Under the pieces are notes generated by a model. It had not been told where the DNA came from. It saw only the letters and a list, made by a program, of their open reading frames with translations, and searched no databases. From sequence record JX128259: a stretch of 64,000 bases of DNA. The stretch is one strand, 5' to 3'. A program made the translations under genes and the position numbers. Origin of the DNA: Escherichia phage ECML-134. This document shows positions 12 through 62,777 of the stretch, one piece after another (the first letter of the stretch is position 1; every line of letters begins with the position of its first letter).

Positions 12-2189
12 TTAGGCCGCAAGGGCCTTCATAGTTTTAGCGATTTGAGAAACTTCATCATCACTTAAAGAGTTGCGATAATCGATGAAGTCGGAAACAA
101 TACGGAATTTCTTGGTAAACTCAGCAACCATTTTATCACTGTTTTTTGAAGCATTATGTGATAATACATCAAAAAGATTAGTTACTGTCCAGATGTCATG
201 ACCGATGGTATCTTTTCCACCATTAAAATATACACCCTGTAATGAACTAACCATATTAGCGAGTCGTGTATATTCTTCAGAAACTTCATCTACACTGAAG
301 TACTTCATCATAAAATCTAACTCAGGATACTTGATAATTTTATCAATATATCGTTTAGCTGAACTTGAATAACCTACATACTTATCATAATCTACATCAT
401 CAAAAGCATCTACATATAAATCACGCAAAGCTTCAAAAATACACTGGCATTGACCAAGCTCTTTTACCTTTTTCTGTAAAAGCGGACGAATAACATAAAA
501 TTCATTAATGCCAATAAGATTAGCCATACGAATCAAAATATTCATAGATGGATGACAAAGAGATGTAGTACCATCCATAGAGAAAATATCAGAACGATGC
601 ATATACGCTACATAACCAGTAATTTCATCTGCTTCTGATGTGAGCGTAAATAATTCCTCTTTTTCCCAGCGCCCGTCTTTAATTTCAAACTTAAATGCTG
701 TAGCAGCTTTAGGACGAGGAGCTTTACTTTTAACTACCTTTGGAATATAGCTTTTAACTAAAGCTTCAATTTCTGACAAATAATGAATGTTAACTTCATC
801 ACTTTCAAACATCGCCATAATGTCAGGAAGTAAATCTATCTGCGATTCTACTTCTGGGTTAATAAACAGAAGGCGTTCGTTATAATGAATATTCAAAGTG
901 TTATTAAATTCACTATCATCTAACGCATGTGCTAATCCACGAACAATATTAACACGATTTTTAATATTATCAATAACAATATTAATTTTTGTTGCATTAA
1001 TACCAAACAGACGATAACTTGATGCAACGGCTGAAGTTTCATGACTTTGCTTAATGCGCTTCAGTCGAGGGTCAAGATTTACTTCATACACAACTCCTGC
1101 ATTGCATAACTTACTGTCAGGTTCAAACATGCTTTGCATCTTTTTATATGACAGATTTTTAGTCGTGAATTTGACTGAATTACTAATCATATAATCTCGA
1201 GCAGAATACCCCATCTTCATCAATTCACGATATGTGTGACGAGGAGATGTAGATTCTTTAAATCGTTTTACATCTTCATTAAATGCTTTCTCACTGAGTT
1301 CTTTAACTCGTTCAATGATATTTTTACGAGTGCGATCATCTAGTGAAAGAGCCTCACGAGATGGAGCAATATCAAGTGAACCCATTGGAAACTTAATGTA
1401 ATTCACTTCATTGCGAATGTTTAGCCAGTTACGGTCTCTAATAACACCATCGATAGGATAAACAATACCGCCGTAGATAGCATATAATCCACCACGATCA
1501 GGCCAGTATCTTTCGGGATTTACACCATAATAATCATCAAAATCCGGAAAATAATCAATTTCGCGGTCAAGACCATTAATGATAGCCAAATCTTTGAACG
1601 GTCGCATGATATAAGAAACTTCATAAGCAAAGTTTCTAAAGTCTTTTTCTTCAACTGGAACTACGATTTCAATACCAGTTTTATCATCTGGACCCATTTC
1701 TTTTACGAATGTAGGTTTAATCTGTGGGCCATCACCATCCATGTAAGCTACATAACCACGAATTTCACCTTTATGGTATGAAGTAATACTAAACGTATCA
1801 GTATAACTAAACGGAGATTTAGAACCTAAACCAAATCCGCCAATGAAATCGTTAGATTCGGCTTTAGATGAACTGAAGTATGAATTATACAGACCAGGAG
1901 AATTATCATCACCCTGAATATCAAAATCACTCATACCCGGACCAAAATCTCGACAAACAAATCGTGGGTCTAAACGTCCTGGAACTTGTATGATAAATTT
2001 TTCAGGATTTCCATTGAGAGCATGGGCATCAATCATGTTAGTAATCAATTCACGAACTACTGCGCGAATCTTGTTTGTATACAAATCAGATGACAGAATT
2101 TTAAATACTTTAGGAGATGCTGTGATGCTAAATGCTTTTGATTTAGAACCATTACCAAGAATTGTTTCTTTTTCAGTGGTGATAATCAT
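12..2189 (-). CDS. rIIA: rIIA rapid-lysis / membrane-associated protein
   Basis: 725-aa ORF at the conventional T4 genome start; size and position match T4 rIIA; stop codon at 12-14. Confidence 0.9.
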
Positions 2190-2199
2190 AATTTCCTCA

Positions 2200-2403
2200 T
2201 TAATTCATATTACGTTTAATAACTTCGGCAACTTCTAGTAGTTCATCTTTAGTTGCGGTGTCAGATTGAATTTTATCTCTAATATCTTTAAAGCGGTTTT
2301 TAAATTCTTCGGCTTCTCCCATATCGAAAAAGCGTTGAATGATTCTATATTCTCGATGAACTGCTTTATCAAAAAGTTCTAAATTTACTTTATATGATTT
2401 CAT
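2200..2403 (-). CDS. small hypothetical protein between topoisomerase and rIIA
   Basis: 67-aa ORF; GAGGA Shine-Dalgarno upstream; lies downstream of the early promoter at 2429-2458. Confidence 0.6.
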
Positions 2404-2428
2404 TTCAATATCCTCATTTGCCCAATTA

Positions 2429-2458
2429 ATTATACCACATCCTTGTGGTAAAGTAAAC
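2429..2458 (-). promoter_or_regulatory. early sigma70-type promoter (-35 GTTTAC, 18 bp spacer, -10 TATAAT)
   Basis: plus-strand gtaaac at 2453-2458 and attata at 2429-2434, read on minus strand; overlaps the gene 39 stop codon. Confidence 0.6.
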
Positions 2459-4278
2459 TACTGGCTCATCCATTCTTTACGAAGGTCAGCATTATCTCCC
2501 ATGAGCATTTCAAAAAGCTCTTTCCAATTCTCAGGAAGTTTAACAACATCATATACTGGATTTTGAATCATCTCACGATATTCAGATTTTTCCAAAGAGC
2601 CAAGTCCCTTAATATAACGGATGCTATGTTTAGGTAGAGCATCTTTAGCACTCTCATATTCGGCGACTGTATAAAACCATTCTTGTTTTTTACCAATCTG
2701 AGCGATGATTACAGGAGTTTTGACAAAGCGAATTCGTCCTTGCTCAAACAATTCTGGCCAATTACTAAAAAATCCAAGCAGAGAAGGATAAATGCTTCCT
2801 AGACCATCATGGTCAGCATCAGTCATAATAGCAATATTATGATAATTCAAGTTTTCAGCTTTTTCACCAAGAACTAATCCAGTGATTGCGCAAATATCAA
2901 ATAGTTCTTTGTTTTTAAGCATATCTGCATAAGACATACCCCAACTGTTGAGAACTTTACCACGCAATGGATAACCACCATGAAGTTCTTTATCGCGAAC
3001 ATCAATAAGATATCCAATAGCAGAATCACCCTCAGTCAAGAAAAGAGTAGTGTCAGCATCTTTACCACAAAGATTCGCTTTGATATGTTTATGAACCTTA
3101 GCTTTAGAAGCCTTTTTAGCTGCTTTAGTTTCTGCTGCTTTTTCTGCCGCCAATTTACGAGCCAAAGCAGCTTCAATAATCGGCATTAGAATAGCTTCAT
3201 TATTTAGAATAGCGCGTGAAATCTTTTTAGCATCAAGCTGAATATGACTACGGATTTCACCAAATGGAGAAGTCAAACGCTCTTTAGTTTGAGAATCAAA
3301 TCGCATGTTTTTCATATCACGAACAAACATAACGATTGTCAAACATTCTTTAACGCGTGCTTTAGTCACATCAATTTTGAACTTACGTTTGATTTGTGGA
3401 ATAAGGTCTTCACAAATATCATCCATAACACAGTCAATGTGATGGCCACCATTCTTAGTGTGAATGTTATTGACGTATGTTAATTGACGAAAACCATCCG
3501 GTGAACGACCAACTGCAATAGAACAATTTTCTTGTTCTTGAACGATAGCATGCTCATCATATTGGCGCGCATATTTCTTAAAATTGCCCTGAACCTTTTT
3601 ACCATTAAAGGTAAATTGAATATCAGGATTAACTACTGCAAGTGTCTGGAGACGATCTAGTGTAATGTCAAGATAAACTTGAGACAGCTCATTAGTTTCA
3701 AATGACATAAAATCAGGAATGAAAGTAACACGAGTTCCTTTCCATTTTCCAGGAATATCTTCCCACGATTTATTTTCCATGCCGTTTGAACAACGAACTA
3801 CAATATTATTTTGACCATCACCAGTTTCACCGACAAACATCACAGAAAAAATGTTTGTCAAACTAGAACCAACGCCATTCATACCGCCGGTGACACGTTC
3901 TTTATCATCACCAAAGTTACCACCTGCTTTTGGAATAGTCCAAGCAGCAACTGGACCAGGAATTTCTTCACCGGTAGGTGTTTTAACCATTGCCTGCGGA
4001 ATACCACGACCGTTATCTTCAACTGTTACTTGATTGTTTTTAATAGTAACATTAATTTTATTTGCGAATTTAAATTTAGTACGAATACCTTCATCTACTG
4101 AGTTATCGATAATTTCATCAATAAGCTTAACAAGACCAGGTACATACTGAACACTTTCCCATTTACCAAACAGAAAGCGCTCATGCATTTCATTAGCTGA
4201 AGAGCCAATGTACATGCCGCTACGCTTTTTGATATGTTCAATATCGCTCAGAATTTTAATTTCATTCTTAATCATCAC
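2458..4278 (-). CDS. 39: DNA topoisomerase II large subunit, gene 39 and gene 60 fused in one frame
   Basis: 606-aa ORF; GyrB-like N-terminus MMIKNEIKILSDIEHIKKRSGMYIGS and GHKL motif VEDNGRGIP; C-terminal 120 aa match recalled T4 gp60. Confidence 0.9.
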   Translation of the reverse strand: MMIKNEIKILSDIEHIKKRSGMYIGSSANEMHERFLFGKWESVQYVPGLVKLIDEIIDNSVDEGIRTKFKFANKINVTIKNNQVTVEDNGRGIPQAMVKTPTGEEIPGPVAAWTIPKAGGNFGDDKERVTGGMNGVGSSLTNIFSVMFVGETGDGQNNIVVRCSNGMENKSWEDIPGKWKGTRVTFIPDFMSFETNELSQVYLDITLDRLQTLAVVNPDIQFTFNGKKVQGNFKKYARQYDEHAIVQEQENCSIAVGRSPDGFRQLTYVNNIHTKNGGHHIDCVMDDICEDLIPQIKRKFKIDVTKARVKECLTIVMFVRDMKNMRFDSQTKERLTSPFGEIRSHIQLDAKKISRAILNNEAILMPIIEAALARKLAAEKAAETKAAKKASKAKVHKHIKANLCGKDADTTLFLTEGDSAIGYLIDVRDKELHGGYPLRGKVLNSWGMSYADMLKNKELFDICAITGLVLGEKAENLNYHNIAIMTDADHDGLGSIYPSLLGFFSNWPELFEQGRIRFVKTPVIIAQIGKKQEWFYTVAEYESAKDALPKHSIRYIKGLGSLEKSEYREMIQNPVYDVVKLPENWKELFEMLMGDNADLRKEWMSQ

Positions 4279-5524: not shown

Positions 5525-5567
5525 ATCAGTAGTTGATATTGATATAGTACCATAATCAACTACTGAT
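5525..5567. repeat. 13 bp perfect inverted repeat with 17 nt spacer in a non-coding gap
   Basis: atcagtagttgat (5525-5537) and atcaactactgat (5555-5567); no ORF longer than 25 codons in the 170 bp gap. Confidence 0.6.
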
Positions 5568-5597
5568 GTATATAGTTTTATGAAAAAATTTTAAACT

Positions 5598-6086
5598 TTA
5601 TGCATAGAGAGCATTGCTATAGTGTTTAATCCAACTTTCAGGAATGACTTTGTATGTTCCTAAAAATACCACGTTGTACAACTTAACGCCATCTTCTACC
5701 CATTGATCGGTAATGTATCCACACATAGCGCGAGTATAAACAGCCTTTCCATCATCTTTGATAAATTTAAATTCACAAGGAGCAATGAACTTGATAGCTT
5801 GACCGAGTTTCCACTTAAAGTCTACACCTACATGCGAAGTATCAATCGTTTCAATTCCTTTAGCAGGAACAGCTTTCAAAAACGCAGGCTCAAGAAATTT
5901 CCATCGAACATAACCAAACTGAGGTTTAGACTTTCCATCTTTAGGAATGATACGCACTTTTACTTCAGAATCTTCATCTTTAACACCATGTTTAAGCTGA
6001 ATGCTTACAATTTCAACCAATTTTCCTGCTGCCTTAGAACGGGATTTATCAGATACACGAGCTAATTCACCAATATTAATAATCAT
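5598..6086 (-). CDS. motB: MotB-like early protein
   Basis: 162-aa ORF, same length as T4 MotB as recalled; shares C-terminal motif with the next ORF. Confidence 0.5.
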   Translation of the reverse strand: MIINIGELARVSDKSRSKAAGKLVEIVSIQLKHGVKDEDSEVKVRIIPKDGKSKPQFGYVRWKFLEPAFLKAVPAKGIETIDTSHVGVDFKWKLGQAIKFIAPCEFKFIKDDGKAVYTRAMCGYITDQWVEDGVKLYNVVFLGTYKVIPESWIKHYSNALYA

Positions 6087-6130
6087 AATTATCTCTCACT
6101 TGTTAAAAAGATTTTATACTCCACGGGACC

Positions 6131-6160
6131 ATTATACTCTGGTCCCAAGAGTTTGTAAAC
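6131..6160 (-). promoter_or_regulatory. early sigma70-type promoter
   Basis: gtaaac at 6155-6160, attata at 6131-6136, 18 bp spacer; 6 bp inverted repeat gggacc/ggtccc flanks the -10. Confidence 0.55.
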
Positions 6161-6162
6161 TA

Positions 6163-6705
6163 TTAATTCAAAATAGCTACCACTGCACTACGAGGTACTA
6201 CGCTAAAATCACCTGCATGAACAACGTTCAGAAGTTCAACACCATCTTCAATCCACTGGTCTGTTACCCAACCACAGACCGAAACAAATGGTGTCTTGAT
6301 AGCTACAGCACGAGTTAGAAGGTCAGTAGGGTCTTGTTCTTCAACTTCTTGGAACAGGATGAACTCATCTTCATAAACCAGGTTTTTCTTTATTTTGTTA
6401 TTATCTAACCGGCGACCGTGGATGACGTAAGATTTGTCAAACCACTCACTTTTGGCAAATTCTTCAACAATAAATTCGCCTTCGCCAAAAACATCAGTCA
6501 GAGTTTTATGACCGGAAATCAAGGCATTAGTTTTAATTTTAGGTTCAACCAGTTTGTAGGTTTTGCCGATTTCAATAGCGGTAGTCATAGTAGGTTCCTT
6601 AATTTCCAGTGGTTTAACAGGGCATACATAAGTGCTTACAACATCAAAATCAATCAGTTTAGCTACCGGATTCGATATGTATTCAGGATTATAATTAAAT
6701 TTCAT
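6163..6705 (-). CDS. hypothetical protein, paralog of motB-like ORF
   Basis: 180-aa ORF; C-terminal CGWVTDQWIEDGVELLNVV matches CGYITDQWVEDGVKLYNVV of 5598-6086. Confidence 0.6.
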   Translation of the reverse strand: MKFNYNPEYISNPVAKLIDFDVVSTYVCPVKPLEIKEPTMTTAIEIGKTYKLVEPKIKTNALISGHKTLTDVFGEGEFIVEEFAKSEWFDKSYVIHGRRLDNNKIKKNLVYEDEFILFQEVEEQDPTDLLTRAVAIKTPFVSVCGWVTDQWIEDGVELLNVVHAGDFSVVPRSAVVAILN

Positions 6706-8212: not shown

Positions 8213-8450
8213 AAAGATAGCTAATTTCGCCTAAAACATAATCATTAATTGTAACAGTTTTCACTTCACCGCAAAAGAATTCTAACGCAATTAAATCTCG
8301 TTCAATTTCTTCTAATTGAAGCATCAACTTATTAGATTCAATTTTTACAGTTTCACGATTTTTACCATGAGCAATTTCATAAATTTCGCTAACTTTATCC
8401 TGAAGAAGATAAAACTGATCTTTAGTTATTTCCACGAATAGCTTCCTCAA
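8190..8450 (-). CDS. small hypothetical protein, tandem paralog 2
   Basis: 86-aa ORF; MRKL start and LEEIERDLIALEFF similar to previous ORF. Confidence 0.55.
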   Translation of the reverse strand: MRKLFVEITKDQFYLLQDKVSEIYEIAHGKNRETVKIESNKLMLQLEEIERDLIALEFFCGEVKTVTINDYVLGEISYLYEAIIND

Positions 8451-8682
8451 ATTTAATTAGTAATTTACAGACACTTTCATCTAGTGTAATTACTGTATCT
8501 GTATTACTGTGATATGATTGTTTTTCAATTCGTTTAATTGCTAATATAGTATCACTTATAAGATAAAGCTTATGAAGGAGCTCAGCTCCTGTTACCATAA
8601 CATTAAGATTGTCTTGCTTATTAGTATGCTTCCTTATACTATCTATTAGACGATTTAAATATTTTGAATTGATGTTAATCAT
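8422..8682 (-). CDS. small hypothetical protein
   Basis: 86-aa ORF overlapping neighbour by 29 nt; weaker similarity to the two preceding ORFs. Confidence 0.5.
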   Translation of the reverse strand: MININSKYLNRLIDSIRKHTNKQDNLNVMVTGAELLHKLYLISDTILAIKRIEKQSYHSNTDTVITLDESVCKLLIKFEEAIRGNN

Positions 8683-8688
8683 ATAGCC

Positions 8689-10008
8689 TCACACATAAAA
8701 CACATCATAGCGACCACGGGTGACACCAACATAAAGAAGTTGTTGAGCCAATTCAGCATCTGCATAATGAATACAAGGCGTATAAATGAAAGCACGGTCT
8801 ACAGACATACCCTGAGCTTTATGGAATGTTGATGCAGGAAGTGCTTTCACTTTACTAAACTGTGATTTAGCATCCCAAAAATCACTCCATGGAGCTTTTC
8901 CGCCTTTATTCCAATTTTTATAAGTTTCTGCCGTTTTACCTAAAAATAGGTTAAACTTATACAATTCTTCGTCAGATGAAATTATTTTAATCTTTTCACG
9001 ATAATATTCATCATCGCCATAAGTTTCTACTGTTAAATCCCAATGACGAATTAAGTATTCTCCAGAAACACCACGAGCTTTAACAAAGGTTGATGTATAC
9101 TCTGCTTCTATAATACGAACTAACTGTCCGTTATTAAAAATAATTTCTGACACAGGCTTTCCATCAATTTTATATGTTTTAATTAATGGTTCCTGCATTA
9201 CAATAATTTCACCGACAATAAAATCTTTATCAGTTTCAAAAATCTTTTTACGAATAATGCTATTTAACTTATCAACAGATTTATTCGTAAATGCCATTAC
9301 ACGATTTTCAAACAAATCATCTAGAGATTTGACGATTGAAAAATAATTTACCATAAAATCACGTAAAGCGGTATCACCAGTAAATCCACGTACTCCATGC
9401 CCGTCAACAACTTTATCATAAATCCACTTACCGTTACGAACGTCAGTAGCTACATCAATAATAGGAGCATTACTGCGTTTAACTTCAGTGAGTTCACACT
9501 GATAAAAATCTTTGTGTGTAAAGAATGGACTGATATAAGCAGTATTTTCTCCTGGGTCAACAGGTCTAATTTGCTTATTATCACCTATTCCAATTATAGT
9601 ACACCAAGGTGGGATAGTTGAAAGCAGAATTTTAAATAGCTTTCTATCATACATTGACACTTCATCGCAGATTAATACCCTGCATTTAGCTAAATCTGGT
9701 ACTTCCTTCTGCTCAAAGAGGACATTTTCTTCATATGTTACTGGGTTAATTTTAAGAATACTATGAATAGTACTCGCTTCTTTCCCTGATAGTTTTGAAA
9801 GAATCTTTTTAGCTGCATGAGTAGGAGCTGCTAAAATAATACCAGTTTCACCCGTAGATATTAAAGCTTCAATGATGAACTTAGTAAGAGTAGTCTTACC
9901 GGTACCGGCAGGTCCATTAATAGTTACATGGTGTTTCTTTTCTTTAATAGCCTTCATAACAATGTTAAAGGCATTTTTCTGGCCTTCGGTCAAATCATCA
10001 AATGTCAT
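8689..10008 (-). CDS. dda: Dda DNA helicase
   Basis: 439-aa ORF, T4 Dda length; Walker A GPAGTGKTT. Confidence 0.9.
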   Translation of the reverse strand: MTFDDLTEGQKNAFNIVMKAIKEKKHHVTINGPAGTGKTTLTKFIIEALISTGETGIILAAPTHAAKKILSKLSGKEASTIHSILKINPVTYEENVLFEQKEVPDLAKCRVLICDEVSMYDRKLFKILLSTIPPWCTIIGIGDNKQIRPVDPGENTAYISPFFTHKDFYQCELTEVKRSNAPIIDVATDVRNGKWIYDKVVDGHGVRGFTGDTALRDFMVNYFSIVKSLDDLFENRVMAFTNKSVDKLNSIIRKKIFETDKDFIVGEIIVMQEPLIKTYKIDGKPVSEIIFNNGQLVRIIEAEYTSTFVKARGVSGEYLIRHWDLTVETYGDDEYYREKIKIISSDEELYKFNLFLGKTAETYKNWNKGGKAPWSDFWDAKSQFSKVKALPASTFHKAQGMSVDRAFIYTPCIHYADAELAQQLLYVGVTRGRYDVFYV

Positions 10009-10316
10009 CGTAAATTCCCTGCAATTGGTATACTAACAATACGCCCAGTATCTAAAATTCGCTGATATAATCTTTGCGTGTCTACGTCAGGCTTAACATG
10101 TTTAACTTCTATTTTATTAAACCAAAATTTACGTGGAGTCTCAACTAATCTTGGAATTCCCTTACCTAAAGCTAGTCGATACTGCTCTTTAAGAGTGGTA
10201 AATACTTTATCAGCAATCTTCCATTCAAAAAATACAGCAGGACGATGTTCATCAAGCGGAACTGGCGCCGTAAATCCGTCTTTGTCTCGGTAAACTATCG
10301 CGTATACATAAACCAT
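10005..10316 (-). CDS. hypothetical protein
   Basis: 103-aa ORF overlapping dda start by 4 nt. Confidence 0.6.
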   Translation of the reverse strand: MVYVYAIVYRDKDGFTAPVPLDEHRPAVFFEWKIADKVFTTLKEQYRLALGKGIPRLVETPRKFWFNKIEVKHVKPDVDTQRLYQRILDTGRIVSIPIAGNLR

Positions 10317-10317
10317 A

Positions 10318-11064
10318 TTATCCTCGGATAAGTTTAAAAATTGAACAATTTAGCGGGTATCCTCTTTTCAGTTTAAGTTTATCAATAAAAGACAAATTTT
10401 GATACCGCTCTACACCTTGAATAATTTTATCACACATATCATATTGCATTTCTGCTTCTGACAACTTTTTCACAATTTTCCAATCCGAGCCTTTAAGAAG
10501 AACGTTCAATTTAACAACTTCAGCGCCTTCTGCTATGCGAGAACCATCAATACGAGCTTTAAGTGCTATAATCCTTAGCTTAATGTCAGATGTCTGTTTT
10601 GATTTAGAAAGCTGAGAAATGTGTTCAATTCGGTTTTCACGTTTTTTCTGTATAGCTTTAATTTGATTATAAGTCTTTTTGATTTTAGCCCATTTCTTTT
10701 CATCTAAATTTAGTTTATGAACTTTTTTCGCAGATGAACGACCAATTCGCAAAGCAAACAAATCACGTTTTTCAATTAACTCCTCTAAAGTATAATCAGA
10801 ACGAAATGTATTATACTTTTTCTTTACTGCAATAACATTCCCTTTAATGTATCCAACGTTATTATCAAAACGTTCTAATGATAATTTCTCTCCTTCAATA
10901 CGATTATCAAAAGGTTCTCCCGAGTAAGCGCAAACTTTCTGATCTAAAATGTTCTTAATGTAATTGAAGTCTAAGTTAAAATCTTTAGAACGTCTTTTTG
11001 CAGATGCCTGAGTATGCTCTAGACGACGTTTAATTTTACGAATTTGATTATTAGACAGTTTCAT
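10318..11064 (-). CDS. srd: Srd-like protein
   Basis: 248-aa basic ORF between dda and modA, as in T4; identity by position and size only. Confidence 0.5.
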   Translation of the reverse strand: MKLSNNQIRKIKRRLEHTQASAKRRSKDFNLDFNYIKNILDQKVCAYSGEPFDNRIEGEKLSLERFDNNVGYIKGNVIAVKKKYNTFRSDYTLEELIEKRDLFALRIGRSSAKKVHKLNLDEKKWAKIKKTYNQIKAIQKKRENRIEHISQLSKSKQTSDIKLRIIALKARIDGSRIAEGAEVVKLNVLLKGSDWKIVKKLSEAEMQYDMCDKIIQGVERYQNLSFIDKLKLKRGYPLNCSIFKLIRG

Positions 11065-15290: not shown

Positions 15291-15808
15291 TAATAACCTC
15301 GGTCTTGACGAGCGAAGTTTTCAGCATTTTTCAGGTAATAAAGTTTAAAGATTTCTTCAGCTGACATTCCAAGAGCAATAAATTTATTCATGAAAAAGTG
15401 AAATTGGTCAATCAGTTCAAATTTAATTTCAAGCTGATCTTCAGGAGATAAATCTTGAATTTTCTTGGATTGCATTTCAGAATAACGTTTCTTCCAAGGT
15501 TTCCATACAGCAGAAGCTTCTTTTTCACCATTACTCATACCACCAAGAGAAGTATATAGCTCGCGAGTTTCATCTGCGATATAATCGTCTTGGTTTCGCA
15601 ACCAAGCAAGAACTTCTCCTGCAGTTTCAAGTGAATCAGGATGACGATTTGTTTCTGGTTTATCATTAGCCAAACGAATCTGTAAATGCCGCTGCATGTC
15701 AAGCATAACCTGCAGTGGGTCAATATTGTGCATAATATTCTCAGCATATGCACGATTTGCTTTATCAACACCTTCGATCAAATGAGCGCATTCATTAAAG
15801 TAAGCCAT
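15290..15808 (-). CDS. 56: dCTP pyrophosphatase
   Basis: 172-aa ORF, T4 gp56 length; MazG-like; AAGGA Shine-Dalgarno. Confidence 0.85.
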   Translation of the reverse strand: MAYFNECAHLIEGVDKANRAYAENIMHNIDPLQVMLDMQRHLQIRLANDKPETNRHPDSLETAGEVLAWLRNQDDYIADETRELYTSLGGMSNGEKEASAVWKPWKKRYSEMQSKKIQDLSPEDQLEIKFELIDQFHFFMNKFIALGMSAEEIFKLYYLKNAENFARQDRGY

Positions 15809-15881: not shown

Positions 15882-16082
15882 ATGGTACAAAAATTAATGG
15901 CACTTGTTAATGCCATAAAAGGTAATAAAAAACGTATAGCTTTTACTATTTCTGCTATGGTAGGAATTTTACTCTGGAACTTTATTTTATCACCAATTGC
16001 AATTGCGCATGGTGTTAATATTCCAGTAGTTACTCTTGATGCATTCGTAGATCTAGCATTTGCTTTAGTTGGGTTAATTTAA
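15882..16082 (+). CDS. small hydrophobic protein on plus strand
   Basis: 66-aa ORF, two hydrophobic segments; aaggagg 5 nt before ATG; only plus-strand candidate gene in the window; convergent with gene 61. Confidence 0.45.
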   Translation: MVQKLMALVNAIKGNKKRIAFTISAMVGILLWNFILSPIAIAHGVNIPVVTLDAFVDLAFALVGLI

Positions 16083-17107
16083 ATCTTGGCATATTTAGAT
16101 AGCCGCATTTTAGCCATCAACCCCTGGGCAATATTATTTTTCATATATTCCATAATTTGTTCAGGGGTTGCACCTTCCTTTCTAATCATATCATTAACAT
16201 CTTTTGATTTCCAGGGAGATTTATCCCAAAACATAACCCTTTCTCCTGCATCAACTAATTTAGTCATTCGCTTAATAGTGTCAGGATGACGAGGTTCATT
16301 ATCTAAAACCCACACTCGTCTATCTTTAAATGGAACAATTTCTAGGTCTAATTGACCACCCGTAATAGCTATACCATTTTCAATAAAAAGTGAATCTATA
16401 GGTCCTTCTAGAACATATACATCACCATCTTTAACTCGTTCGACTCCATAGATTTTTGTTGCCTCAGGATAAGCTTTGATGGTGATATATTTTTGAGGAG
16501 CATCTTTCTTTAATGCACGTCCTTGAAAAGACTCAGCTTTTCCATTAGCATTATAAATTGGAATAACAAGACGAGGCTCAGGTATTTCCTTTTTATATGT
16601 TCCTGGTGCTATGCTATTAACTAATTTAGGCCATTCAGTTGTAAACCAAAGATATTTCCATTTATCCTTTGGAATACAACGAGCTTTTACGTATTTTATA
16701 ATTGGATGGTCTTCCGTCAGTTTATCTAATCTAACACATGACGGAAGAGATTTAATTATTTTCTTCTCAGGTTGTTTAGGAAGTTCTTTAGGTTTTTCTA
16801 CTGGACGACTTTTACCTTTTTCTTTTCTTATTTCAAAGATATACTCACGATATAAATCAGGTTCAAACTCCTTTAAATATATTCCGATTGGTGCATGATA
16901 GTTACAGTTATAACAATGAATATTTCCTTCATTATTATCACCATAATACCATCCACGGGCTTTATTTTGGTCGGTTTTTGAATCTCCACACACTGGGCAT
17001 CTAAACCGCAATTTAAAAGTTGAACTATTATTTACTTGTGTGAATTTAGGTAAATGAGCTAATGCACGGTATGCAAACTCATTATCAATCCAAGGTATTG
17101 ATGACAT
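16079..17107 (-). CDS. 61: DNA primase
   Basis: 342-aa ORF, T4 gp61 length; zinc-ribbon CPVCGDS...CYNC. Confidence 0.9.
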   Translation of the reverse strand: MSSIPWIDNEFAYRALAHLPKFTQVNNSSTFKLRFRCPVCGDSKTDQNKARGWYYGDNNEGNIHCYNCNYHAPIGIYLKEFEPDLYREYIFEIRKEKGKSRPVEKPKELPKQPEKKIIKSLPSCVRLDKLTEDHPIIKYVKARCIPKDKWKYLWFTTEWPKLVNSIAPGTYKKEIPEPRLVIPIYNANGKAESFQGRALKKDAPQKYITIKAYPEATKIYGVERVKDGDVYVLEGPIDSLFIENGIAITGGQLDLEIVPFKDRRVWVLDNEPRHPDTIKRMTKLVDAGERVMFWDKSPWKSKDVNDMIRKEGATPEQIMEYMKNNIAQGLMAKMRLSKYAKI

Positions 17108-17111
17108 TTTT

Positions 17112-17273
17112 ACTCTTCTTTTTCTTTAGATTCCTCTTTTTTCTTTTTAGGAATCTGTTCAGGACCTTTATTTACTACAGCGCCTGATGTTGTTCCAGTA
17201 GAGATATTTTCAGGATTACCACCTGAATCTCCAGCGACCATATCTTCTTTAATAAATTCTTTATATGTTTTCA
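17112..17273 (-). CDS. small protein with internal-protein-like N-terminus
   Basis: 54-aa ORF translated by hand: MKTYKEFIKEDMVAGDSGGNPENISTGTTSGAVVNKGPEQIPKKKKEESKEKEE; stop 1 nt before gene 61 ATG. Confidence 0.5.
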
Positions 17274-17275
17274 TA

Positions 17276-17902
17276 TTAACCTCTATTCATAAAAGCATTA
17301 AAAATTTGGTCATCAATAGAAACATTTACTTTAGACTGTTTTTCAGATGGCAATTCATATCCACATATTACAATTTTATGATCAATATCAAAATACACAG
17401 AAGCAATATGATTAATGATATTTTCAGTGAAGTCTAAATCAACATCAATATCTTTTTGACCAAAGCCCAAAGGATAAATAATGCGAGTAATTCGATTATC
17501 TTTAACAAAGATTCCACCGACATACTCTGTGCTGCGTTTAAAGTCTACACGCCGATGAAATGAAAAATATTCAGGCTCTTTATGAGCTCGGCTCATAGGG
17601 CACAACGAATAACTAGAATAAGAGATGTCAAATCCTACACCTTCAATATGAACTAAATTGTCATGATTAAACCAATTATAATCATATGCCAAGTCCATTA
17701 GATTGTCATATGTGAAAGGCACCGGATTAACATCATTGGTCACAAGCATATAATTAGCAACTGCTATAATTTCATTATTTTTAACGAATACAAACCGTGA
17801 TTGATGCGAATGACCTGGACCTGCGTTTTCACGATTAATGATATAACACTGGGCACCTTTATATTTGTACGTGTCTTTACACTTGTGCATTTGATAAAGC
17901 AT
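17276..17902 (-). CDS. hypothetical protein
   Basis: 208-aa ORF between primase and sp. Confidence 0.65.
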   Translation of the reverse strand: MLYQMHKCKDTYKYKGAQCYIINRENAGPGHSHQSRFVFVKNNEIIAVANYMLVTNDVNPVPFTYDNLMDLAYDYNWFNHDNLVHIEGVGFDISYSSYSLCPMSRAHKEPEYFSFHRRVDFKRSTEYVGGIFVKDNRITRIIYPLGFGQKDIDVDLDFTENIINHIASVYFDIDHKIVICGYELPSEKQSKVNVSIDDQIFNAFMNRG

Positions 17903-18195
17903 TATTCACCTACTACTTCAGCGATGATATTTTTATTATTGAAGTTTTTATCGCAATACAGAACATAATTATACTGCATTACACCACCAGACTTAAGTTG
18001 TTTTTGCACTTCAGCTTTCATTTCAGGACGATCACGCTCAACTATATTCATAATATCTGCTTCAATTTGAGTTTCAACCTCAGTCTGATCCGCAGTCATA
18101 GACCATTCGCATAAATCTTTATCATAACCTGCCATAGCAGGCTGAGCAGCACAAGAAGCTAAAGCAAAAACTGTAGCAAAGATAAATTTTTTCAT
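17902..18195 (-). CDS. sp: spackle periplasmic protein
   Basis: 97-aa ORF with cleavable signal peptide MKKFIFATVFALASCAAQPAMA; size and position match T4 sp. Confidence 0.7.
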   Translation of the reverse strand: MKKFIFATVFALASCAAQPAMAGYDKDLCEWSMTADQTEVETQIEADIMNIVERDRPEMKAEVQKQLKSGGVMQYNYVLYCDKNFNNKNIIAEVVGE

Positions 18196-18223
18196 GATAA
18201 TCTCCTCAGTAGTTTATGTTTAT

Positions 18224-18254
18224 ATAGTATCTCAATTTCCAATAAAAGTAAACA
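18224..18254 (-). promoter_or_regulatory. early sigma70-type promoter
   Basis: gtaaac at 18249-18254; -10 TACTAT-like. Confidence 0.5.
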
Positions 18255-18255
18255 G

Positions 18256-18555
18256 TTATTTTAAAACTTTTGCATAATCACATGTTACAAACTGTTTCTC
18301 TAACTTGACGATCTTACGAAAATACCTTTTACACTGACGAATCTGCCTCTTCGTAGGACGTACAGCAAACTTAATAAATTCCACTCGACCAAATGGAGGA
18401 CTTTCTTCTGCTGGAATATCTAACACCAATTCCCACGTATCTGCAATAAGTGCTTTGAATTGCGTATTTTTCCTGACGTTATACGGAGTAGGTTTAAATA
18501 AAACAATATGCATATTATCCTCGGCAATCCACTTCACATACTTTCTTGTCATCAA
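18256..18555 (-). CDS. hypothetical protein
   Basis: 99-aa basic ORF; overlaps dmd 3' end by 41 nt, so start may be internal. Confidence 0.55.
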   Translation of the reverse strand: MMTRKYVKWIAEDNMHIVLFKPTPYNVRKNTQFKALIADTWELVLDIPAEESPPFGRVEFIKFAVRPTKRQIRQCKRYFRKIVKLEKQFVTCDYAKVLK

Positions 18556-18697
18556 TGAAAGCTTTAACTAATGCTTTATTAACTTCAGCATATTGAGTAG
18601 TAGCCCATTGAACGTCATCTTTCATCATTGTGATTTCTTTAGTAAACATGCTTTCATTCTTAAACCACCCCATAAAAACTACCTTTACCAATTCCAT
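18515..18697 (-). CDS. dmd: Dmd antitoxin
   Basis: 60-aa ORF MELVKVVFMGWFKNESMFTKEI... matching recalled T4 Dmd; sits next to gene 41. Confidence 0.75.
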   Translation of the reverse strand: MELVKVVFMGWFKNESMFTKEITMMKDDVQWATTQYAEVNKALVKAFIDDKKVCEVDCRG

Positions 18698-61613: not shown

Positions 61614-62087
61614 TTATTTGAATGATTTAACGTACTGAATAGAGCCTTTACTATTCACGAAAGCGATTTTACCATTTTTATTATACATGGTAGCAGTACG
61701 CTGATAGCCATAAGTTTGCTTACCAGATTGATAACCAACTAATGCAAAATTATCTTCACCCATTTTATTCTGTTTAGCACGAATACGTTCATGACCATGT
61801 GCCATAAGAACTTTAGCATCACCAGTTGCAATGGATCTACGAGTTTTTTCATCTTCAACTGTATTAACAAAATCGTCAAATGAATCAAATTTAGCATGTG
61901 ATTTATTATACAGTTTTCCATCTACTGCATAATTATATCCTTGTACATCCATCTCAACTTCTGTACCATCATCTAATACAGCAGTAATTTTCTGTCCTTT
62001 TTTAAATTTCAAAAGATCAGTAAAAGATTCAGCAATAATTTGAGAATTAATAGCTGCTTCAGTAATAAATTCTTGATATGTTTTCAT
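61614..62087 (-). CDS. internal head protein, IPII-like
   Basis: 157-aa ORF beginning MKTYQEFITEA, the capsid targeting sequence of T4 internal proteins; body differs in length from recalled T4 IPII. Confidence 0.6.
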   Translation of the reverse strand: MKTYQEFITEAAINSQIIAESFTDLLKFKKGQKITAVLDDGTEVEMDVQGYNYAVDGKLYNKSHAKFDSFDDFVNTVEDEKTRRSIATGDAKVLMAHGHERIRAKQNKMGEDNFALVGYQSGKQTYGYQRTATMYNKNGKIAFVNSKGSIQYVKSFK

Positions 62088-62195: not shown

Positions 62196-62777
62196 TTAAG
62201 AATTACCGCGGGCTGCATTAGCAACAGCGTAAGCGTACTGAACATTAGCGTCTTTAAACGTACCTTTAGAGGTATCTAGTTCTGCCTTAAAGCCGCCTTT
62301 AGTCATAACCTCGGCGAATTCTTTACGGAAAGCCATTGCATCAAGGCTTCTCCATGACGATTTGTGCTTGGCGAATTCAAGACCAGCGTAGTTGACAGCC
62401 TTAGCTAATTTATTATCAATAACCCATTTACCAGCTTTAGGCACAAACACCGGGCCTTTCTGTTTAGAGAATAGTTTTAAATTCCAGCGACGAAGGTCAC
62501 CGTCAGCTTTAACAAAAGCTGCGTCCAAGTTACTAGCAACAACATCTTGAATATGGCCAAATTTAAGCCCATCAACTTCAATATTTAAATCTGTACGCCA
62601 GCGAAGTCCTTCCCAAGCGAAAGCTTTAAAGTCAGAAGCTTTTGTAGCTAAGTATCGTTCAATAGGGGCTGTTTTAGGGTCAAAGCCGTTTCCCGATCGG
62701 TAGGTCCACTCATCTTTATTAATGCCTTTGGCCTTTTCCACAGAAGCTTCAGCGATAAATTCTTTATACGTTTTCAT
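62196..62777 (-). CDS. ipIII: internal head protein IPIII
   Basis: 193-aa ORF beginning MKTYKEFIAEA; T4 IPIII length. Confidence 0.7.
   Translation of the reverse strand: MKTYKEFIAEASVEKAKGINKDEWTYRSGNGFDPKTAPIERYLATKASDFKAFAWEGLRWRTDLNIEVDGLKFGHIQDVVASNLDAAFVKADGDLRRWNLKLFSKQKGPVFVPKAGKWVIDNKLAKAVNYAGLEFAKHKSSWRSLDAMAFRKEFAEVMTKGGFKAELDTSKGTFKDANVQYAYAVANAARGNS

Follow-up and report, generated by a model that had tools for sequence, protein, structure and literature searches.

A small protein encoded by gene 61.1 of Escherichia phage ECML-134 resembles the maturation junction and N-fist of the T4 capsid protein gp23

During head assembly of phage T4 the protease gp21 removes a 65-residue propeptide from the capsid protein gp23 by cutting at LTE65|A66 (PMC9546572). 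The mature protein, gp23*, starts with the N-fist, an unusual N-terminal structure of about 25 residues which contacts four subunits and helps to form the Soc site (PMC9958956) and which corresponds to gp23 residues 66-91 (PMC7136217). Residues 66-105 lie inside the unexpanded head, where they probably touch the gp22 scaffold core, and move outside at expansion (PMC9546572); thereafter they form the N-arm and the N-fist (PMC9546572, PMC9958956, PMC7136217). The gp23 mutations A66D, A94V and G97S alter head length (PMC9546572). In the expanded T4 head, cryo-EM revealed unassigned helical densities under the gp24* P domains, for which the authors suggest the cleaved gp24 decapeptide or a part of another digested core protein (PMC9546572). 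The T4 internal proteins (IPs) IPI, IPII and IPIII carry a ten-residue leader of the pattern MKTY.EFI.E, the capsid targeting sequence (CTS). For IPIII, these first ten residues suffice for packaging (Mullaney and Black 1996, summarised in PMC9026906), with positions 4 and 7 as main determinants of targeting and positions 8 and 10 as determinants of processing (PMC9026906). Here we describe gene 61.1 of Escherichia phage ECML-134 (sequence record JX128259), located in an analysed stretch of 64,000 nucleotides which is called the window in the following. Its product gp61.1 appears to be built from three parts, namely a leader with a gp21-type site, a copy of about the first 28 residues of gp23* and a Lys-rich tail, and, judged by its sequence, reproduces the maturation junction of gp23 as a separate protein. 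The gene and its parts are:

17110..17274, minus strand: gene 61.1, coding sequence of 54 codons plus the stop codon TAA at 17110-17112 (from the ORF list and the sequence)
17245..17274, minus strand: CTS-type leader MKTYKEFIKE, codons 1-10, ending in the gp21-type site I-K-E|D
17161..17244, minus strand: paralogue of gp23* residues 66-93 (N-fist 66-91 plus Gly-Pro), codons 11-38, DMVAGDSGGNPENISTGTTSGAVVNKGP
17113..17160, minus strand: Lys-rich mixed-charge tail, codons 39-54, EQIPKKKKEESKEKEE (from alignments and charge calculation)

From the ATG to the last codon the gene spans 17274..17113 on the minus strand and encodes 54 aa, MKTYKEFIKEDMVAGDSGGNPENISTGTTSGAVVNKGPEQIPKKKKEESKEKEE. An ORF of this length with the start MKTYKEFIKE had been recognised in a preliminary description of the window, which placed it at 17112-17273; the ORF is indeed there, with limits that differ by one to two nucleotides.

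Residues 2-38 of gp61.1 align without gaps to residues 57-93 of T4 gp23, with 16 of 37 residues identical (BLASTP, E=1e-8). In an unbiased phmmer search of the whole PDB with the single 61.1 sequence, gp23 was the top match (E=0.0085), and a profile of the 61.1 family recovered gp23 residues 58-101 from the whole PDB with E=1.2e-6. In the alignment, IKE10|D11 of gp61.1 falls on LTE65|A66 of gp23 and residues 11-36 fall on gp23* 66-91, so that the segment 57-93, comprising the maturation junction and the N-fist, is found in gp61.1; the mutated positions 94 and 97 follow shortly after the end of this segment. The family-invariant residues G15, D16, G18, I24, G27, T29 and G31 and the nearly invariant P38 are identical in gp23, whereas the remaining invariant residues, M12 and G19, differ. 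The gp23-like segment is the part which the 61.1 family actually conserves, and over residues 2-38 the protein is a homologue of the junction and N-fist of gp23, not simply a low-complexity sequence. The sequence behind the leader had previously been described as a Gly/Ser/Thr-rich remainder; the gp23 paralogue within it had been overlooked. The resemblance to Gp23 is confined to this local match of 37 residues: no Pfam match was obtained at E<=1, and neither the family model PF07068 nor the HK97-fold body is represented. Some annotation pipelines label homologues as 'major capsid domain-containing protein' or 'putative head morphogenesis protein'. A literature search found no paper discussing the resemblance between 61.1 and gp23, and both the junction mimicry and the co-variation with the capsid protein reported below appear not to have been described previously.

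The leader links gp61.1 to the IPs. Three occurrences of MKTY are present in the window's six-frame translation, one in 61.1 and one in each of two IP genes:

62196..62777, minus strand: comparator IP gene, 193 aa, leader MKTYKEFIAE|A, phrog_5341 internal virion protein (E=1.6e-117)
61614..62087, minus strand: comparator IP gene, 157 aa, leader MKTYQEFITE|A, phrog_3155 (internal virion protein), Pfam DUF7412

The first ten residues of 851 ATG-started ORF candidates of at least 30 aa were scored against the T4 CTS MKTYQEFIAE. The IP genes reached 47 each and 61.1 reached 42, followed by a next best score of 20 (mean -1.8, sd 6.9, n=851). Eight of the ten leader residues of gp61.1 are identical to this CTS, and its first 33 nt agree with the IP genes at 27-28 positions, the DNA further upstream being dissimilar. 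The IP-like N-terminus noticed in the preliminary description is thus confirmed, as is the distance of the gene from the IP cluster, which amounts to 44 kb in the window. At the targeting positions gp61.1 carries Y4 and F7 and at the processing positions I8 and E10 within I8-K9-E10|D11, the same as in IPIII. In IPIII an E10D exchange blocks processing and leaves targeting intact. Moreover, one natural IP of phage JS10 carries the identical ...FIKE leader (FIKE|S). Since the determinants match those of IPIII and the FIKE leader exists on a natural IP, CTS-type targeting and cleavage of gp61.1 is plausible in the window phage.

The same positions are occupied at the end of the gp23 propeptide. 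The last ten residues read AQAFGSFLTE in T4 (residues 56-65), VEAFGGFIAE in RB49 and VESFGGFLAE in KP15, as compared from the gp23 genes at stretch coordinates 925-2490, 8278-9864 and 1690-3258, respectively. In all three an aromatic residue, Phe, Leu or Ile, and Glu stand at IPIII CTS positions 4, 7, 8 and 10; in T4 these are F59, F62, L63 and E65, and RB49 gp23 reads FIAE. Because the propeptide end fills the four CTS determinant positions, the comparison suggests a single motif class comprising the CTS, the leader of 61.1 and the pro-junction of gp23.

Leaders of this type were also seen elsewhere. In the e-to-57B region of JS10, four ORFs on the minus strand (at 2845, 3759, 4397 and 15787) begin MKTY[QKN]EFI[TAK]E; one is annotated as internal protein (ipIII), two as 'hypothetical protein', and the one at 15787 has no annotated CDS. 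A search of RB49 (1-125 kb) found no further ORF with the leader of its 61.1, UvsW.1 alone being vaguely similar. The UvsW.1 N-terminus, MLLEFKQFLYEA in T4 (10223-10453) and MISFKRFLVEA in RB49 (17832-18068), resembles the CTS and the RB49 61.1 leader MIGFKQFVEE, and is a warning that short amphipathic N-termini of CTS type are also found in proteins not known to be connected with the head.

IKE10 is the sole [LIM]xE site in gp61.1 and agrees with the gp21-type motif (L/I)-x-E| in an accessible segment; in an AlphaFold2 model of a longer family member the segment following the cleavage site is disordered. Among 106 family members the residue four before xGD (P1) is Glu in 93 and Asp in seven, and P3 is Leu, Ile or Met in 96. 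The motif always stands four residues before xGD, in the same register as FLTE65|AEIGGD of gp23. On these grounds gp61.1 is a likely substrate of the head protease gp21. A cut at Glu10 would release a predicted peptide of 44 residues, 4.6 kDa and a pI of about 5. A K/R run at the position of the tail is present throughout the family; in the product predicted for T4-type phages the Lys run is followed by acidic residues, and elsewhere it is more basic. The predicted semi-tryptic peptide of cut gp61.1, starting at Asp11, is DMVAGDSGGNPENISTGTTSGAVVNK, and the uncut form reads MKTYKEFIKEDMVAGD...

Relatives of 61.1 were detected by tblastn in 1431 phage records with Escherichia, Klebsiella, Aeromonas, Acinetobacter, Vibrio, Proteus and other hosts, so conservation in related phages, proposed earlier as a check, is given. 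The window ORF matches the family profile phrog_1823 over its full length (residues 1-54 of 54, E=7e-34). In RB49, KP15 and Vibrio phage VH7D the gene is located just upstream of the primase gene, with two other ORFs between 61.1 and gene 61 in RB49 and KP15. Between the window, RB49 and KP15 (62-66% nucleotide identity), 9-14 of 30 core codons show synonymous-only changes, and the 61.1 protein is under purifying selection. Two architectures occur, a T4-/RB49-type of 51-63 aa and a long form of about 160 aa (phrog_2086), found in KP15, KVP40-like phages and many others:

KP15_24, stretch coordinates 1144-1632: long form
VH7D, stretch coordinates 1183-1662: long form (KVP40/VH7D protein of 159 aa)

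The long form consists of an N-terminal domain of about 110 aa, which in many phages replaces the leader, and the same C-terminal module. Its last helix (…LPELKEVLSE|EMVAGD) aligns with the T4-type leader (MKTYKEFIKE|DMVAGD). AlphaFold2 models a confident helical N-domain (pLDDT >90, residues 10-70), and a helix extending up to the cleavage site, with the motif region disordered, as would be expected of a segment which is ordered only in a lattice. A Foldseek search with the N-domain gave no match in the PDB, and its matches in BFVD were all uncharacterised phage proteins. The domain is present in 1213 cluster representatives at E<1e-3, also within proteins of 250-900 aa; it shares a subdomain with phrog_18642 and has no Pfam family. 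Neither 61.2 nor RB49 Dc1 is a detached version of it, as both lack similarity. Scans of gp61.1 and one long form against Pfam, NCBIfam and PADLOC gave no informative match; of the PADLOC defence and counter-defence profiles none matched gp61.1, and the long form gave a chance-level E=0.044. A KVP40-type insertion, GDGSSS, was also noted.

The comparison was extended to more distant T4-like phages. In Stenotrophomonas phage DLP6, Sinorhizobium phage phiM12, Methylophilales phage Melnitz and one metagenomic protein, gp23 has no N-fist and its mature part starts E|AAPTN.TG..(I/V)..(F/Y/W)DP(V/I)LISLVRR. Three metagenomic members of the 61.1/N-domain family read (M/L/I)xE|EPTNVIGDxGxNDNIxT(F/Y)DPxxK…RRKKK at the corresponding place and match gp23 of the distant type with E=4e-5 and E=1e-5. 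The gene adjoining one metagenomic 61.1-like ORF is closest to Melnitz and phiM-type phages. Smith-Waterman scores of 61.1 against gp23 were 75-108 within the enteric and 39-62 within the marine lineage, but 18-27 across lineages; the two 61.1 groups scored 22-35 against each other. A tblastn search with the 40-aa marine motif gave no match, probably owing to the short query. In Melnitz, an N-domain gene is followed by an overlapping ORF (2340-2951 and 2948-3466), so that the family is apparently split in this phage, and the primase gene follows 3 kb downstream of the 61.1-like ORF. The second ORF reads …GIKTE|DAPANASGSAV…KKKEKK and the phage's own gp23 reads …AFLSE|AAPTNSTGSAV…; the register of the match is correct, and 'GSAV' is found in this pair alone. 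By these alignments the 61.1 module follows the mature N-terminus of the cognate capsid protein, between deep lineages only. Repeated conversion could account for such co-variation, as could adaptation to a partner common to both proteins.

On the marine contigs, which derive from distant T4-like phages, several ORFs in the vicinity of the 61.1-like gene start MKTYQDFMTE, MMKTYQDFITE, MKTFKQFTE and MKTFRQIVEE (5557-6024 and 6031-6198 on one contig, 671-826 and 3777-4124 on a second), and the ORF 1075-1404 of the first contig contains MKTFEDFLNE internally. Leaders of CTS type on these marine ORFs lie far outside the T-even group.

The window belongs to Tequatrovirus; the DNA around the ORF (601 nt) shares 99.2% identity with T6 and 98.7% with T4. 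In T4 records the ORF is annotated as 61.1, 'hypothetical protein'; its neighbours there are 61 on one side and, on the other, 61.2, sp, 61.4, dmd and 41. The window ORF likewise lies between the helicase gene 41 and the primase gene 61 on the same strand, a position also seen in T4T, T6, RB49, KP15 and VH7D. The ORF is real, but it is the known gene T4 61.1 and not a new one. Its immediate surroundings are:

17280..17283, minus strand: Shine-Dalgarno sequence GAGG, 5 nt upstream of the ATG and overlapping the last codons of 61.2 (read from the sequence)
17276..17902, minus strand: 61.2 = adfA (anti-DarT factor), 208 aa, upstream neighbour, ending 1 nt before the ATG of 61.1
16079..17107, minus strand: gene 61, DNA primase, 342 aa, downstream neighbour, with its ATG 2 nt after the stop codon of 61.1

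T4 adfA is identical with 61.2 (PMC11257639). The gap to the primase start comprises two nucleotides and not one, as had been stated; the translation signal GAGG is present. No terminators were found between 61.2, 61.1 and 61, and directly upstream of 61.1 no convincing promoter. Gene 61.1 is apparently co-transcribed with 61.2 and with 61.

Just upstream of 61.1, window positions 17276-18697 on the minus strand carry homologues of 61.2 (adfA), sp (spackle), 61.4 and dmd; together they form a series of counter-defence and exclusion genes in the interval from the helicase to the primase gene. In T6-type records (T6 AP018814, stretch coordinates 1686-1874) the A-run of 61.1 is one nucleotide shorter, which results in a 62-aa variant with the tail KKKKRNLKKKKSKNVINTLD that overlaps the primase start; the window gene has the 54-aa T4-type tail despite DNA closest to T6. 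Automated annotations of the region are unreliable. The dam.1 homologue (T6 AP018814, 498-683) shares the label 'putative head morphogenesis protein' with 61.1, and other doubtful labels are 'DNA primase/helicase' for 61.4 and 'major capsid protein' or 'methyltransferase' for 61.1 homologues.

Compared with the known systems, gp61.1 shares with T4 IPI, IPII and IPIII the leader with its four determinant positions and the (I/L)xE| end, a nearly identical stretch over the first 24-33 nt, early-class RNA and dispensability in the laboratory. It differs in its mature part, which is predicted to have 44 residues and to be mildly acidic, while the IPs are basic proteins of 8-20 kDa. Moreover, 61.1 is fixed next to the primase gene and conserved, in contrast to the variable, rapidly diversifying IP loci near e and 57B, and its leader drifts from the CTS where IPs keep it (JS10) or is exchanged for the 110-aa domain. 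With gp23 (PF07068) it shares the cleavage Glu and the N-fist pattern xGD..G.N..I..G.T.G....GP at equal distance from site to GD. It lacks the HK97-fold body and propeptide residues 1-55, and ends in the Lys-rich tail where gp23 continues into the N-arm and the Gol region. With gp67, gp68 and the gp22 fragments it has in common a small size and a predicted gp21 site, at which cutting would leave a short peptide in the head, but gp61.1 shows no sequence similarity to them, is encoded outside the head cluster and lacks a late promoter. The known internal peptides of T4 are strongly acidic scaffold fragments. The long forms (phrog_2086; KP15_24, KVP40/VH7D) have in common with gp61.1 the hydrophobic-x-E| motif, the N-fist copy, the K/R tail and the site upstream of the primase gene, and differ by the extra N-domain in place of the ten-residue leader. 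By these comparisons gp61.1 is best described as a conserved small protein which reproduces the maturation junction of the capsid protein, and as neither an ordinary IP nor a capsid protein.

The explanation which we tentatively favour, with some hesitation, is that gp61.1 imitates the maturation junction of the capsid protein, enters the prohead and, as a substrate of the prohead protease, is cut to a 44-aa peptide. The protein would be made from an early 61.2-61.1-61 transcript and would then persist. Recruitment to the assembling prohead core could use the contacts which hold the gp23 pro-junction and, in T-even phages, the IP leaders with their CTS. This step is suggested because gp23 residues 66-105 lie inside the unexpanded head, probably in contact with the core, are affected by head-length mutations and move outwards at expansion (PMC9546572). 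Once activated, gp21 would cut after Glu10, and the new N-terminus of the 44-residue product would imitate that of gp23*. The Lys run might keep the peptide on the DNA; alternatively, the peptide might act on those sites of capsid or scaffold to which the gp23 N-terminal region normally binds, or leave through capsomer pores together with scaffold fragments.

Several observations weigh against this explanation. Gp61.1 was not detected in a T4 time-course proteome, and its RNA is early-class (PMC9697503 supplement). In the same data IP genes combine early-class RNA with late-class protein (PMC9697503 supplement), and early transcription is for this reason no argument against prohead recruitment. 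The late promoter consensus (TATAAATA) is absent within 15-21 kb on both strands. A literature search found gp61.1 mentioned neither in a mass-spectrometry study of the T4 head nor in reviews; a search covering gp61.1, virion mass spectrometry and the KP15/KP27 proteomes likewise yielded no functional data and no record of the protein among virion mass-spectrometry results. Knockdown of T4 61.1 by CRISPRi-ART was scored 'Not Fit', that is, without fitness effect (PMC11879866 supplement). In related genera the leader departs from the CTS consensus: JS10 has MKTYxEFIxE on four IP genes, yet its 61.1 begins MKSFKEVMNE, and the RB49 leader reads MIGFKQFVEENKLKE. The idea that the 61.1 leader tracks the IP leaders was rejected, as the JS10 IPs keep the CTS and 61.1 does not. 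The suggestion of the preliminary description that the ORF encodes a small packaged peptide holds in so far as the CTS-like leader is real and specific; across the relatives this leader does not behave as a CTS would. IPs are cleaved without a gp23-like P' sequence, and so cleavage alone fails to explain why the N-fist copy is conserved. Within Straboviridae no within-phage co-variation was found between 61.1 and gp23: in T4, RB49 and KP15 the segments of the two proteins share 14-18 of 33 residues whatever the pairing, and the 61.1 proteins share 19-20 with each other. Because identity is independent of the pairing, an old duplication with both copies fixed at the same positions is indicated. 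Outside Straboviridae, the marine 61.1-like genes and the matching gp23 genes are on different contigs, the former too short to include a capsid gene, and the only same-genome pair, that of Melnitz, is a short match with E=0.009.

An extension of the favoured explanation, by which the 61.1 family would be a co-evolving junction replica acting in trans during head maturation after the gp21 cut, is decidedly unlikely in our view. Such a peptide could fill N-fist/N-arm docking sites that have no donor, for instance near gp24 pentons or the portal, or could instead compete for the scaffold contacts which set head length. 

Among the rival explanations, a regulator of head maturation survives best, though we regard it as rather doubtful. 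Here gp61.1 would act in trans and not as cargo, competing for gp21, gp22 or the N-fist docking sites and tuning cleavage timing, capsid length or expansion. The copied gp23 segment is the one in which A66D alters head length and which is thought to touch the scaffold core (PMC9546572), A94V and G97S just past it have the same effect, the cleavage site is conserved in register and the module co-varies with the capsid N-terminus. A regulator is less easily reconciled with the neutral knockdown and with the lack of a known phenotype; it overlaps the favoured explanation, from which it differs only in the action of the cleaved peptide.

Alternatively, gp61.1 could be a counter-defence decoy, an early mimic of the capsid N-terminus which blunts or misleads a host capsid sensor and has no role in the head. 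The location immediately downstream of the counter-defence and exclusion genes dmd, sp and 61.2 = adfA would fit this, as would the early-class RNA, a dispensability in the laboratory host which is typical of counter-defence genes, and a motif that tracks the capsid N-terminus between lineages. A decoy would have no need of a protease site conserved in exact register, and counter-defence genes such as the IPs are patchily distributed, unlike 61.1 with about 1400 genomes, fixed primase synteny and an occurrence beyond Straboviridae. PADLOC gave no match, and we know of no sensor which reads gp23 57-93; the Lit/Gol determinant starts just after this stretch. Altogether we consider a decoy unlikely.

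Less probable again is a replication accessory, a small partner of primase and helicase whose likeness to gp23 would be an evolutionary leftover. All Straboviridae examined have the gene between 41 and 61, and in Melnitz it is near the primase gene; in the window 2 nt separate the stop codon from the primase start. The gene is transcribed early, and the Lys-rich tail might bind nucleic acid. The coupling is not conserved, as RB49 and KP15 have two ORFs between 61.1 and 61, and position is weak evidence, since gene 40 (head assembly) lies in the same early cluster of T4-type genomes. The most constrained residues are those common to gp23, and there is no similarity to replication proteins. A replication role would also not lead one to expect that the motif shifts together with the capsid protein, as it does in distant lineages; we judge this explanation improbable. 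That the ORF is due to chance or is a functionless, decaying fragment of gene 23 is scarcely credible: it is very small, partly of low complexity, undetected by proteomics and dispensable, but it is conserved across genera with many synonymous-only codon changes and has a good Shine-Dalgarno sequence, invariant residues and a conserved cleavage motif and tail.

The assembly of the T4 head is among the best-studied pathways of its kind, yet 61.1 has no assigned function despite its occurrence in about 1400 genomes. Reading it as a replica of the capsid junction makes an anonymous ORF testable, as cleavage would be expected after Glu10 with a product of 44 residues. It also points to a possible role at the sites which bind the gp23 N-terminal region, a region implicated in head-length control, expansion and Soc binding. 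The comparison with gp23 further suggests that the CTS used in T4 packaging vectors corresponds to the last ten residues of the capsid propeptide in a different setting. If gp61.1 is packaged, it would be an additional component of the T4 virion; if it is not, it would be a remarkable example of an early protein, encoded beside counter-defence genes, which mimics the capsid.

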